Below, in pieces: positions 11,168-46,413 of a stretch of DNA of 64,000 nt (position 1 is its first letter; each line of letters opens with the position of its first letter). Source of the stretch: a virus (lineage: Duplodnaviria > Caudoviricetes); IMG/VR virus record IMGVR_UViG_3300035498_000778, positions 32,001-96,000 of that record. The stretch is one strand, 5' to 3'. The notes under the pieces are model-generated. The model did no database searches, was not told where the DNA came from, and worked only from the letters and a program-made list of their open reading frames with translations. Position numbers and translations under genes: made by a program.

Positions 11168-11224
11168 GAATATAGAGATTAATATTAGCACATCGTTTCT
11201 ATGTTCCAGTATATAAGGATGTGC
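11168..11224 (+). ncRNA. Structured 5' leader (pseudoknot type II) containing TTCTATGTTCC
   Basis: GAATATAGAGA pairs with TTTCTATGTTC; GCACATC pairs with GATGTGC; the two stems cross. Confidence 0.5.
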
Positions 11225-11251
11225 ATCTTACATACCATAGGAGGTATAATT

Positions 11252-11545
11252 ATGAAAACAAATAATATCCAAAGAAAAGACCTAGTCAGCATCCTAGAGG
11301 AGCAATACTATGCGCAGTATGAGATATACGTAGATCTATATCCTGGCAAACGCAGAGAAAACAGACCAGCTAAGGTACTACTTGGCTACGACGGCTTGTT
11401 TAATCCAGATATGTCAGATGGTGCTATCGCTCTACTAATCATGTTCCAAGGCGACTATGACAAAGCTCGTCAACATCAAAAAGCAATCATCGACAGGATG
11501 GAAGACGTCCTACGCGATGCTGGCTTGGAAGATAAGCTTATGTAA
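11252..11545 (+). CDS. Small early hypothetical protein
   Basis: AGGAGGT SD before ATG 11252; early promoter upstream; terminator about 11566-11592. Confidence 0.7.
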   Translation: MKTNNIQRKDLVSILEEQYYAQYEIYVDLYPGKRRENRPAKVLLGYDGLFNPDMSDGAIALLIMFQGDYDKARQHQKAIIDRMEDVLRDAGLEDKLM

Positions 11546-11650
11546 TAAGTCTAGAAGAGTCTTTATGAGGAGTTTTTATGACTCCTCTTTTTTTATTTTT
11601 TATACGTGGTAAACAATCATATAATTTAATTTTATGGAGGAATAAAAATA

Positions 11651-12367
11651 ATGAGTGATTTTGAATTTAGAGATGTCATAACTAATAACGATGAAGGTTA
11701 TGACAATATATCAAAAAACAACAATAACGGCTCAGAAAATATAAGAACCGTGGCTAAGTTTGAAAAAGTGACTTTTGAGCAATTCTTTGATGATATGAGA
11801 AGTACTGGTTGTTTAGATGTTTTTTTGGATCCAGCTTCTGGATATGTATCTGATACTTCAGAAGCAGTAGGAAGAGTAGTAGAACTAGTTGAGAAAATTT
11901 ATGACAACATTAAGATTCCTTGTAGAGCTACTAATAAGTCTGCGGGATATGATTTTTTCTTGCCATTTAATTATAGTATATACTCTGGAATACAGTCAAT
12001 TGTAATTCCTACTGGTATAAGATGTAATATGCAAGAAGATGTCGCTTTATGGTTGATGCCTAAATCTGGTCTTGGCTTTAAGTATCATATGCAGTTAATG
12101 AATACAATAGGATTAGTTGATGCGGATTACTATAACAGCGATAACGAAGGACATATCATGTTAAAGATAAGTACAGACGACATGCAGCAATCATGTGGAT
12201 GTCATAGTAGTGATGATTCGTCTAACAAAGAAAAGTATGTACCGGAATATCTACAAGAGGGTAAAAAGATAATACAAGGAGTATTTTTAAAATACTACAC
12301 AACTAGTGATGATGATCAGACCGATTTTCAAACTAGGAATGGTGGATTCGGTTCCACAGGAGAATAA
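11651..12367 (+). CDS. dut: Trimeric dUTPase
   Basis: Motifs SAGYDF, PTG, PKSGLG, GLVDADYY, RNGGFGSTG. Confidence 0.93.
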   Translation: MSDFEFRDVITNNDEGYDNISKNNNNGSENIRTVAKFEKVTFEQFFDDMRSTGCLDVFLDPASGYVSDTSEAVGRVVELVEKIYDNIKIPCRATNKSAGYDFFLPFNYSIYSGIQSIVIPTGIRCNMQEDVALWLMPKSGLGFKYHMQLMNTIGLVDADYYNSDNEGHIMLKISTDDMQQSCGCHSSDDSSNKEKYVPEYLQEGKKIIQGVFLKYYTTSDDDQTDFQTRNGGFGSTGE

Positions 12368-12474
12368 TTATGTATATAATATATGCGAAGCAATTCGCAT
12401 ATATTTTTTGTGCAAATTTTACCTATCCCCCAACATAATAGTAATCAAAATAAAAATAGAAAGGTTGAATAATT

Positions 12475-13257
12475 ATGAGTGAATTATTTGGAGAGTACTA
12501 TGATATAGATAGTCACAGTATTTTAAAAGGTGTATCTGTGGATTTAATAATAGAATACTTAAAGGAGCAAATGGTTGATCCTTATAACTTAAGTACAAGA
12601 AACTATGTTGATGAATTTATAGGTGACTATGAATATTCTAAAAAGTGTGTAATAGAAGGAAATGAAGAAGCTGATGATATTAACGATACGGAACTAGATG
12701 AAGAGCTAGCTAGAGTAGAAGGGTATAGAAACAGGTTCATTGAATTCGTAAGAGGATTATTTTATAATAATTTATCAATAGGACTTAATGAATTTGATGA
12801 TATAGCACCTGATAAGCAGGATAAAATCTTGTCCGTTGTATATAGGTATTTTGTATTGAATATTAAGCGTAATTTCCTTAATTTATGTGAAGGATATATT
12901 GAAGAGCATAGGAATGATTTGGCTAAAGTTTATAAGAGAAACGGTGACATCACGGCGTTAGCACAAAAAACACGTGTTACTGATCCAATCGATATGATCA
13001 TCATTTCATCGCTGCCAGAGATTATTAATGAGATTATGAATATCGAATATCCTATTGACGAGTTCGTTGTCCATACATATGGTCTAGAACCTCCTGAGTA
13101 TGATGCAGTATTAGTCAAGGAATTAATTGATAAAGATATTATAACTGGTAACTTTGTACCACATTATAAAAAGCTTGCTAGCGATTACTTACTTAATGAT
13201 ATTGAATTCATCATAAAATCAAGCATATTGAGTAAGTATAATGCTGAGAAAGAATAA
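12475..13257 (+). CDS. Hypothetical acidic protein
   Basis: 260-aa ORF with SD and late promoter 12432-12443. Confidence 0.6.
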   Translation: MSELFGEYYDIDSHSILKGVSVDLIIEYLKEQMVDPYNLSTRNYVDEFIGDYEYSKKCVIEGNEEADDINDTELDEELARVEGYRNRFIEFVRGLFYNNLSIGLNEFDDIAPDKQDKILSVVYRYFVLNIKRNFLNLCEGYIEEHRNDLAKVYKRNGDITALAQKTRVTDPIDMIIISSLPEIINEIMNIEYPIDEFVVHTYGLEPPEYDAVLVKELIDKDIITGNFVPHYKKLASDYLLNDIEFIIKSSILSKYNAEKE

Positions 13258-13262
13258 AATTG

Positions 13263-13275
13263 ATTATATATTATA
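13263..13275 (+). promoter_or_regulatory. Early promoter
   Basis: ATTATATATTATA. Confidence 0.7.
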
Positions 13276-13357
13276 ATCTTAATGTGTACCAGTAAATTAT
13301 TATTGAGTATACATAAAGTTAAAATAAATTCAAACAAGAAAAAATGGAGGTTTTGCT

Positions 13358-45093: not shown

Positions 45094-45098
45094 ATTGT

Positions 45099-45172
45099 GA
45101 ATATAGAAATAAATTGCATCCGTTTCTATGTTCCTCTGGTAACAACAAATACCAATGTTCGTAAGTGATGCA
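45099..45172 (+). ncRNA. Structured 5' leader (pseudoknot type II) containing TTCTATGTTCC
   Basis: GAATATAGAAA pairs with TTTCTATGTTC; TGCATC pairs with GATGCA. Confidence 0.5.
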
Positions 45173-45205
45173 TAATATTCTATAGATTCTTAAGGAGGAA
45201 TCATT

Positions 45206-45652
45206 ATGTTAAGAACAACCTTAACCAACACTATATCCGCTATTAGCGGAGTAATCTCTAAGGCACATGCCGCTCACCCAATAATCACTGGGTTAGTATT
45301 ATCAGGGGCTATCAAAAAAGCTATTAACACTGCCAGCGGAATAATAACCACTGCAGTATTCAAAGTAGCCAAGATAGAAGACAGCCCTATGCCAACTGGT
45401 GCTGCTGATATCAGAAACGCACCATGGAAGGCTTTTGGTAGCAAAAAGCGCATATGCGTTGAGGGTATAGCCTTCGCTCTTAGAGTATTAGTCATACTTG
45501 CATTGGGTACTATTCAGAGCCCAATCGCAGCATCACTCGTGAGATTCCTAAAAATCGACAACGTACTTACGATCATCTCCATCATACTAATAAGTTGTAT
45601 GGTATGTGTAATGTACGGTGCTAGATACTCAGAAGTATGTGCTGCACAATAA
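45206..45652 (+). CDS. Early membrane protein, paralog of 22590
   Basis: Blocks identical to 22590..23039. Confidence 0.75.
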   Translation: MLRTTLTNTISAISGVISKAHAAHPIITGLVLSGAIKKAINTASGIITTAVFKVAKIEDSPMPTGAADIRNAPWKAFGSKKRICVEGIAFALRVLVILALGTIQSPIAASLVRFLKIDNVLTIISIILISCMVCVMYGARYSEVCAAQ

Positions 45653-45753
45653 ACCCACAAAGCAATATTCATCTCACTCAGAGTACAAAACGTACTCATT
45701 CGTAATATTCATCGCATTGGGTTTTAAAGCGAGTATACCTATATTTATAAACA

Positions 45754-45820
45754 AGGTGGATACATAAAACGGAACACTGTATTCATCTAAATTCTATGTT
45801 CCGATCAGGGTAGGAGGCCC
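45754..45820 (+). ncRNA. Pseudoknot leader (type I) plus SD hairpin
   Basis: AGGTGGATACA / TGTATTCATCT stem, compensatory relative to the 23142 copy; CGGAACA pairs with TGTTCCG. Confidence 0.6.
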
Positions 45821-45827
45821 ATGAATT

Positions 45828-46319
45828 ATGAAAAAGATGTTACTAATCGCTACTGGTGTGGCTGCAGTTGCTGCAACAGTTATTGCTTCTATGGTAGTTA
45901 TCAACAAGAAGAAAACACAACAAGTTGATACTATAGACGACGTATTCGAAGATATCGACGAATGCGTAAACTGCGGTGAGGATTGTCCTTGTTATGATGA
46001 GTGCGACTGCGACGTTACTGAGGACAACATGGATGTAGAAGATGATACAACTGAGGATGAAACATCTGAAGAAAATACATCTGAAGATGATACAACTGAG
46101 GATGAAACATCCGAAGAAAATACATCTGATACATCTGACGATTCCGAGGATACATCTGAAGATAGTTCAATAATACGTGACAAAGACGCTTTTAAGGAGT
46201 TAGTATTATTGGCGTTAAAAGAATTATCTGAAGATGGTTCAATAATACGTGACAAAGACGCTTTTAAGGAGTTACTAGCATTGGTGGCAAATGACATAAA
46301 GGTAGCCAATAACGAATAA
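45828..46319 (+). CDS. Membrane-anchored Cys-cluster/acidic early protein, short paralog with internal tandem repeats
   Basis: Shared N-terminus; CVNCGEDCPCYDECDC; 45-bp and 72-bp-period duplications. Confidence 0.75.
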   Translation: MKKMLLIATGVAAVAATVIASMVVINKKKTQQVDTIDDVFEDIDECVNCGEDCPCYDECDCDVTEDNMDVEDDTTEDETSEENTSEDDTTEDETSEENTSDTSDDSEDTSEDSSIIRDKDAFKELVLLALKELSEDGSIIRDKDAFKELLALVANDIKVANNE

Positions 46320-46341
46320 CAGATGTCAATATTATGGCATC

Positions 46342-46413
46342 CGGAGTGGGTACGTAAACGGAACAACGTATTCACTCTGCATATCTCTATGTTCCGATCA
46401 GGGTAGGAGGCCC
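46342..46413 (+). ncRNA. Pseudoknot leader (type I) plus SD hairpin
   Basis: CGGAGTGGGTACGT / ACGTATTCACTCTG stem; CGGAACA pairs with TGTTCCG. Confidence 0.6.

Follow-up and report, generated by a model that had tools for sequence, protein, structure and literature searches.

In phage genomes, a short invariant word that recurs on one strand between genes, after terminators and before the next gene, is usually a promoter. Among the closest described systems is that of Bacillus phage AR9: the early promoter consensus is AAATATATATTAT-N6-G(+1), early and late promoters stand in tandem, 5-50 nt apart, before continuously expressed genes, and 5' untranslated regions (UTRs) span 17-490 nt, with unexplained motifs noted within the early ones (PMC5312081). 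phiKZ-like phages use three promoter classes (PMC11512511), and the late promoters of the phiKZ non-virion RNA polymerase (nvRNAP) consist of a 4-5-bp TATG word, (-3)TATG(+1), that overlaps the start point (PMC7618050). Here we describe an 11-base word with a TATG core that recurs before small early genes in an uncultured giant phage of the AR9 type. The stretch analysed, called the window throughout, comprises 64,000 nt with a G+C content of 33% and corresponds to positions 32001-96000 of C1, a 124,892-bp IMG/VR virus contig with an estimated completeness of about half. The recurrence is real and shared with related phages, and the word resembles a transcript-start or boundary signal more than a new pseudoknot riboregulator.

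An exact search of the window for the word, YTCTATGTTCC, confirms the six positions listed in an earlier note on this DNA (11197, 22307, 23180, 45124, 45792 and 46385), all on the + strand, where 0.07 copies would be expected and none of 100 shuffles reaches six. Relaxing the search to 1-2 mismatches yields nothing above chance in the window, so the copies are sharply defined. The earlier note had also suggested looking through the rest of the genome, and a search of the whole contig brings the count to eight, the two further copies lying on the - strand (C1:5721 and C1:26268). All eight are non-coding and share the orientation of a Shine-Dalgarno sequence (SD) and start codon downstream, as the note had said of the six. 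TATG is invariant in every copy, the copy at 46385 is the CTC variant, and the word can be written TTCTATGTTCC in this phage and YTATGWTCC as a core across the clade.

The copies fall into two sets. In the Type II set (11197 and 45124 in the window, 5721 and 26268 on the contig) each copy lies 30 nt after an early start, whereas each Type I copy (22307, 23180, 45792 and 46385) follows a stem-loop. The note had placed the word always in leaders of early-promoter transcripts; this stands for the three window copies with an early promoter directly upstream (11197, 22307 and 45124), and the remaining three proved to be intercistronic. The six window copies are not six independent samples, since three of the Type II cassettes are near-identical duplicates and three of the Type I copies precede paralogous genes. 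A segment complementary to the motif lies upstream of all eight copies, and from these sequences it is plausible that the motif pairs with upstream RNA in each. The element has no counterpart in Rfam: there was no match at the gathering threshold over the whole window, and a permissive scan of the six leader loci gave two chance matches only, both elsewhere in those loci. A literature search for the word itself retrieved primers only.

We examined the word in relatives of this phage. The contig's DNA polymerase shares 27% identity with that of AR9/PBS1 and 46% with that of an uncultured 262-kb phage, G001. Core proteins of the contig match those of AR9 and of the uncultured jumbo-phage contigs G003, G004 and G005 at 25-45% identity, a homologue of gp226, the AR9 promoter-specificity subunit, being among them; phage nucleotide searches found no near relative. 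The 10-mer occurs 10, 7 and 6 times in G003, G004 and G005 (216-230-kb contigs), and 1-3 times in each of nine large control contigs, all of which had come up through one match apiece. After removal of coding matches, such as those in a conserved FYVP peptide, the exact 11-mer is found at 4, 2 and 4 non-coding sites, and the relaxed core T[AG]TG[TA]TCC at 9, 15 and 18. An SD plus ATG follows these sites 15-70 nt away and is always co-oriented with the word; the genes downstream of the word in G003-G005 are mostly without a PHROG match and form no coherent functional class.

The sites are distributed like promoters. A strong hairpin ends at most 8 nt upstream at 20 of the 50 non-coding sites, against 66 of 1200 (5.5%) random non-coding positions, and in G003-G005 this hairpin is usually a canonical terminator whose U-run continues directly into the word. 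In G003-G005, roughly one site in two has an early (TATATTAT-N6-G) or AACA-N6-TA late promoter between word and gene; there the nearest transcript lacks the word, which argues for a role at the level of DNA. Two G003 sites fall in regions of divergent promoters and have no gene of matching orientation upstream. The G of the motif in G005 stands 18-36 nt from the SD, which agrees with the 18-39 nt between early starts and the SD.

Likewise, the letters of the word are kept where pairing does not demand them. In the G004 family, one orthologous leader carries an 80-nt insert; in the sister orthologue, L270, the transcript's 5' end has changed and pairs locally, and the word is kept about 100 nt downstream, about 25 nt before the SD. 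Furthermore, the G of TATG is retained despite a G-U wobble wherever the hairpin arm is the word, and is A in a phage where something other than the motif supplies the 3' arm. Because the word is kept after its partner has changed and is also found beyond the nearest transcripts, its conserved letters carry a constraint of their own. The earlier note had taken the word for an RNA leader element of early transcripts; such a role alone cannot account for the related-phage sites beside terminators and upstream of promoters, nor for the orthologous leader in which the motif outlasts its 5' pairing partner. A promoter, 5'-end or boundary signal accounts for the independent constraint at least as well as a pseudoknot operator does.

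Several further arrangements were seen in these relatives. In G005 (L210), four small genes lie in tandem, each preceded by a cassette of two hairpins (contig positions 108260, 109046, 110290 and 111637), the motif forming the loop and 3' arm of the second hairpin; a similar cassette lies near 5820 in the G004-like contig L270. GAGAAT or GAGGAT stands immediately before the motif in G005. Many late promoters in Table S3 of the AR9 report have a GAGAAT-like word about 8-10 nt upstream of AACA, an element whose discussion was not found in the available part of the text (PMC5312081). An A/U-rich stretch of the AAATTAAATT type directly precedes the SD of about 80 of the 219 predicted G005 genes, apparently as a standard leader of early and other transcripts. 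In G001, several terminators (for example 132960 and 144864 on the + strand, 113667 and 135035 on the - strand) run straight into TATCATA, possibly an analogous post-terminator signal.

Tentatively, and with somewhat less than even confidence, we read the word as a compact non-early promoter, or at least as a signal that defines a 5' end, with a TATG core and a transcribed copy that is reused as a pairing arm. The word would then be a sense-strand signal of the AR9-like jumbo-phage clade, marking the gene's own transcript start. The conserved bases of this second, non-early promoter would overlap the start point, as do those of phiKZ, (-3)TATG(+1), and the T-A/G start of AR9 late promoters. 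The signal would be placed right after the hairpin that ends the previous unit, or, in the phage described here, downstream of an early promoter or between cistrons, and the genes would carry tandem promoters like the continuously expressed genes of AR9. Because early transcripts read through the signal, we propose that its RNA copy came to serve in pairing: it would close, in Type II leaders, a hairpin on the extreme 5' end of the early mRNA, possibly stabilising it, and in Type I units it could pair with the GGAAC loop of the preceding hairpin. What the sequences show is the motif itself, its distribution, its association with hairpins and the covarying 5' hairpin; the early start sites, drawn from the AR9 consensus, initiation directed by the motif and the polymerase that would read it are inferred.

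The early promoters themselves have the AR9 form, ATATATTAT-N6-G(+1) with a CCGTA-type box upstream. Cores of this virion RNA polymerase type, with a G six bases downstream, lie at 11153, 22202 and 45084 and at two places elsewhere on the contig, and all start sites given here are predicted from the AR9 consensus (PMC5312081). All features of the window described in this text are on the + strand. The promoter of the 11197 copy (11129-11161) is bipartite, with an ACCGTAAT box at 11129-11136, a ATATATTAT core at 11153-11161 and a predicted start at G11168, in agreement with the AR9 consensus. That of the 45124 copy (45060-45099) is likewise bipartite, with ACCGTAAC at 45060-45067, the core at 45084-45092 and a predicted start at G45099. 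In the 22307 leader (22202-22217) the core occupies 22202-22210 and the start is predicted at G22217.

This layout shares with AR9 the early promoter type, with ATATATTAT-N6-G and a CCGTA-like box, and the tandem arrangement, in AR9 with two start signals 5-50 nt apart (PMC5312081). Unlike in AR9, the second signal here is not AACA-N6-TA, and AR9 has one or two copies of the word with no mapped start there. On the sense strand of our copies, the AACA of an AR9-type late promoter (AACA-N6-TA/G, with AACA at -11 to -8 of the start) was not found at the required distance before TATG; AACA is enriched upstream of SDs in the contig, and AACA promoters of the AR9 type are also used by the motif-bearing phages. 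The resemblance to phiKZ lies in a very short word with a TATG core, read there by a split multisubunit phage polymerase of the same broad family. In contrast to phiKZ, the word here measures 8-11 nt, with TTCC after the G, it is fused to an upstream hairpin or U-run, its start is a proposal, and AR9-type AACA promoters are used as well.

RNA contigs give a first view of this locus. Those from three animal-gut metatranscriptome runs cover only 45129-47045 of window positions 40001-48000, with 100% identity and at low depth. The early accessory block at 45129-47045 is thus represented in RNA libraries; no such contig matches the larger upstream genes (43232-45023). The first of the contigs starts at T45129, inside the TATG of the 45124 copy, with the 30 nt back to the predicted early start uncovered; read as an RNA 5' end, it is a weak hint, and it is the only nearby RNA end that can be compared with a phiKZ-type start at the G of TATG. 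The uncovered segments 45099-45128 and 46184-46461 are not informative at this low contig depth. A freshwater DNA run shared short, divergent pieces only, which give no information on habitat.

Several observations weigh against a promoter. Coupling to the hairpin or U-run at 0-1 nt fits a signal read in RNA or by an elongating polymerase (pause, termination, cleavage or operator) at least as well, and AR9 late promoters stand at variable distances from terminators (PMC5312081). The 3' half of the word is paired in three architectures, including the loop-tail helix, and upstream complementarity accompanies all eight copies; a pure DNA promoter has no use for either. The four-copy cassette of G005 shows one compensatory change (GAGGAA/TTCCTC vs GAGGAT/ATCCTC), equally without use to such a promoter. 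Distribution speaks against it too: in AR9 the word is limited to one or two sites, at which no start is reported, and G001, the nearest phage by DNA polymerase, lacks the motif in its non-coding DNA. Neither a second gp226-like specificity subunit nor a protein common to the motif-bearing phages and absent from AR9 was found in the available sequence, a weak negative, since for the phage described here that is about half the genome. Finally, the RNA contig that begins at 45129 includes the T one base before the G of TATG, another starts one base before the 45792 motif (45791), so that the two ends disagree on the position within the motif, and a third spans that motif uncut; contig ends at such depth may be random.

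The best-supported structure at these sites is the Type II 5'-terminal hairpin. In the 11197 leader (11168-11206), positions 11168-11179 pair with 11195-11206 over 12 bp, the 3' arm being the motif (11197-11207), and this is the minimum free energy (MFE) structure. In the 45124 leader (45099-45133), 45099-45110 can pair with 45122-45133, with the motif at 45124-45134. We searched IMG/VR for an early promoter followed by the nine-base transcript start, leaving the downstream sequence unspecified. Matches in genuine early-promoter contexts span several phages, and most fold into a hairpin that starts at +1; found in this way, without use of the motif, the 5'-terminal hairpin recurs in at least five further AR9-like phage lineages. 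Its 3' arm is our motif in the G004 family and L250, a related but different sequence in three leaders of a 256-kb phage, and a shorter arm in another register in L253 and L262. An alignment of nine leaders from several phages, three of them found without reference to the 3' arm, has 95% of its cells paired, against 33-61% when the partner is slid; three pairs show double changes, and none of 500 shuffles is as good. On this covariation we take the Type II 5'-terminal hairpin to be real.

Stem-loops at the very 5' end are classical mRNA stabilisers, as in the ompA leader of E. coli and in aprE and model mRNAs of B. subtilis. The Type II hairpin is evolutionarily maintained and pairs from the predicted +1, within the 0-4 nt of the mRNA 5' end where such stabilisers start, and by analogy it would fit this known kind of element. 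It shares with the ompA and aprE stabilisers the position, the covariation in several phages, the variable loops and a place in the leaders of short, highly expressed early genes; it differs in that the word making up its 3' arm is conserved beyond the hairpin as well, and in that both starts and stabilisation are predicted here.

The earlier note had further proposed, for Type II leaders, that a second stem crosses the first. Pairing of the 5' segment with the motif is thus backed by other lineages and by covariation, while the crossing stem remains weak. In the 11197 leader (11188-11224) it would join 11188-11194 to 11218-11224, a complementarity read from the sequence that appears in the centroid structure; the one independent comparison is 45115-45120 with 45167-45172 (45115-45172) in the 45099 copy, giving two lineages of one genome. 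Together, hairpin and crossing stem would form an H-type pseudoknot, for which the case is weak. The MFE fold of the 45124 leader pairs the 5' end (45099-45110) not with the motif but with 45178-45185, just before the SD; the two competing partners could act as an alternative-pairing switch.

An alternative that we consider rather unlikely is that the word is an RNA processing site, at which a host or phage endoribonuclease would recognise single-stranded RNA immediately 3' of a hairpin. The cut would separate cistrons and trim terminator read-through; the RNA upstream would keep a protective 3' hairpin, and the RNA of the next cistron would begin at a fixed point. Within early leaders, the 5' hairpin or the loop-tail pairing would mask or time the cut. 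RNase III processing sites are known in T7 early mRNA and in SP82/SPO1 early RNAs, and the word resembles them as a repeated, hairpin-linked element in the leader and between the cistrons of early polycistronic RNA; it differs from them in that its conserved part is single-stranded or partly paired rather than a long duplex, and cleavage is putative. The tight coupling to an upstream hairpin seen at the 20 of 50 sites and the pairing of the word's 3' half in three different architectures are what a processing site would predict, and the scarcity of the word in AR9 and G001 could reflect a host-specific nuclease. RNA contigs point both ways, one beginning between A45128 and T45129 and one crossing the 45792 copy uncut. 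The two divergent G003 sites, and the half of the G003-G005 sites that precede the nearest promoter, would be transcribed only by read-through, and our comparison of shared proteins identified no candidate nuclease.

The earlier note had instead placed the 11-mer at the core of a cis-regulatory pseudoknot leader, through which a trans-acting protein or RNA controls translation or decay of early messages; to this we give a low probability. The Type I stems on which it builds were all located where the note had put them. The first unit (22267-22318) has its stem at 22267-22274/22296-22303, the loop TGGAAC at 22284-22289, the motif at 22307-22317 and the tail GTTCCA at 22313-22318. In the second (23143-23191), the MFE stem is 23143-23153/23165-23175, the loop CGGAAC 23158-23163, the motif 23180-23190 and the tail GTTCCG 23186-23191. 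The third (45755-45803), between the genes at 45206-45652 and 45828-46319, comprises stem 45755-45764/45778-45787, loop CGGAAC 45770-45775, motif 45792-45802 and tail 45798-45803; its stem differs from that at 23143 by one double change, G-C to A-U. The fourth (46342-46396), between two paralogous genes, comprises stem 46342-46355/46366-46379, loop CGGAAC 46359-46364, motif 46385-46395 and tail 46391-46396, with a folding z-score of -3.1. These stems are not intrinsic terminators, the tails after 23175, 45787 and 46379 being mixed A/U/C; only the stem ending at 22303 precedes four U.

In all four Type I copies, the YGGAAC loop is complementary to the GTTCCR at the 3' end of the motif. The 6-bp loop-tail helix is 100% paired in the four, with five invariant pairs and one that changes from C-G to U-A. 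The note's claim that this pair covaries and yields an H-type knot thus holds as far as the pairing goes; it rests on a single double change, and the MFE fold of the 22307 copy is a plain hairpin in which the motif pairs with 22277-22288. On the sequence, Type I pseudoknots are possible and thinly supported. The stem at 22307 is wholly unlike the others, yet its GGAAC loop and motif are fixed and the flanking pair goes from C-G to U-A; the stems contain G-U pairs that only the sense RNA can form, and loop lengths would be sterically compatible with H-type knots. Rfam, as noted, has no match, and in both Type I lineages a hairpin with the SD in its loop comes after the motif. Set against this are modest z-scores (-0.6 to -3.1 across the leaders), a motif-SD distance of 10 to 60 nt, unlike that of steric translational operators, the many related-phage sites without a pairing partner or outside the nearest transcript, and an antisense partner that was not found in the 125 kb available.

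Independent samples are also few. All four Type I copies belong to a single genome and probably share ancestry, and orthologous leaders were not recovered: protein-based locus searches found none, the sole homologue contig begins inside the gene and does not cover its leader, look-ups of exact proteins led back to this phage, which is present in JGI samples around 3300035497-3300035502 and 3300043078, and its leaders there were identical, and a pattern scan of one metagenome returned two G004-like contigs only. In its broader form, with the 11-mer as recognition core of a new phage riboregulator, a single-stranded or partly paired RNA word read by a dedicated phage or host factor in several folds (5' hairpin, H-type pseudoknot and hairpin loop) throughout the AR9-like clade, the idea is likewise a long way from probable. 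If true, the word would govern the stability of early accessory-gene messages, their processing or their translation.

In each Type I leader, a small GGG(G)/CCC(C) hairpin directly precedes the start codon and carries the SD in its loop or 3' arm (23196-23208, 45808-45820, 46401-46413 and 22321-22343). In the first unit, the GGGG/CCCC hairpin (22321-22351) presents the SD at 22335-22339 before the start codon of a 48-aa gene at 22349, a layout like that of the other Type I copies. In the second (23196-23218), the SD lies in the loop and the start at 23216 opens the gene of an acidic, membrane-anchored protein of 251 aa, paralogous to those at 45828 and 46422. These genes belong to two paralogous blocks (22200-23971 and 45083-47174), each with, in this order, an early promoter, the motif, a gene of 148/149 aa whose product begins MLRTTL, a Type I unit and a gene for an acidic, membrane-anchored MKKMLLI protein; of this last kind there are two in the second block, one with a Glu/Asp/Thr/Ser-rich repeat.

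It is improbable that the word has no dedicated function, in which case Type II would be a 5' stabiliser hairpin that merely complements a conserved start, and the other copies remnants or joints of mobile cassettes of the promoter early stem-loop (PeSL) kind. The cassettes as such are evident. Three Type II copies lie in near-identical units of about 140 bp, whose identity of about 98% extends to codon 3 of genes that are not related. In L301, a 950-bp contig from another sample, the cargo gene of 11197 stands behind the C1:5721 cassette variant and its upstream flank (L301:1-153 against window 11090-11260 and C1:5668-5809). This natural recombinant, joined inside the near-identical promoter and hairpin unit, supports cassette-mediated gene shuffling. 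T4-type PeSL units behave likewise: small composites of promoter and hairpin, they border variable accessory genes and serve as joints for recombination (PMC2839356, PMC4122927); unlike them, the units here run in the order promoter, hairpin, ribosome-binding site (PeSL: terminator, then promoter), use the phage's own polymerase and contain an 11-mer common to distant phages. Identity that ends at codon 3 of unrelated cargo, a recombinant that joins one cassette's cargo to another's variant, and 5'-terminal hairpins with differing partners and registers on early transcripts of many lineages all suit a word of no separate function. The exact 11-mer is nevertheless present far above chance in distant phages that lack the 5' partner, outlasts the loss of its partner and retains a wobble G where A would pair better.

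It is hardly likely that the word is a hairpin-assisted pause or termination signal, or a polar DNA-binding site, which would reinforce stops where units meet or bring a factor to the elongating polymerase. In its favour, the U-G step of TATG lies 9-13 nt after the hairpin, the geometry of hairpin-stabilised pauses of multisubunit RNA polymerases, at a constant spacing from the hairpin base, the pyrimidine(-1)/G(+1) step is the bacterial consensus pause and the motif lies between terminators and downstream promoters, but several sites lack a hairpin, a stop 30 nt into early leaders would defeat this phage's early promoters, and RNA is found downstream of the 45124 and 45792 copies.

Three further candidates were set aside. 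The target of a trans RNA, a possibility raised by the earlier note, fell away when the reverse complement on the 125-kb contig proved confined to the two minus-strand leaders. An antisense late promoter was considered, since the reverse complement contains AACA, and GGAACATAGA fits AACA-N6-TA in one of five distinct contexts. An upstream mini-open reading frame (ORF) from the ATG of the motif has no SD and is variable in length and frame, and was judged unlikely. That ATG is in frame with the downstream gene in two cassettes (11201-11545 and the C1:5721 copy), so that mechanical ORF calling places the gene start inside the motif. This is how the 97-aa gene of the 11197 leader came to start at 11201 in the mechanical list; its SD lies at 11240-11244 and its start codon at 11252 (11240-11254). 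Elsewhere the motif ATG opens mini-ORFs of 4-13 codons, one of which terminates on the start codon at 22349.

For AR9-like jumbo phages, only a single cultured representative has described transcription signals, and these fall into two classes. In several uncultured relatives from gut and rumen, every letter of the word described here is conserved, and the word is fused to hairpins where one gene gives way to the next. It would be either a third promoter class for split polymerases or a signal for processing, stability or control at the RNA level, and both would extend the known regulatory repertoire of these phages. The covarying 5' hairpin of early messages is a simple, testable candidate stabiliser, and the cassettes show how accessory genes are shuffled. 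In either case, the word offers a handle for annotating transcription units in metagenomic jumbo-phage genomes.

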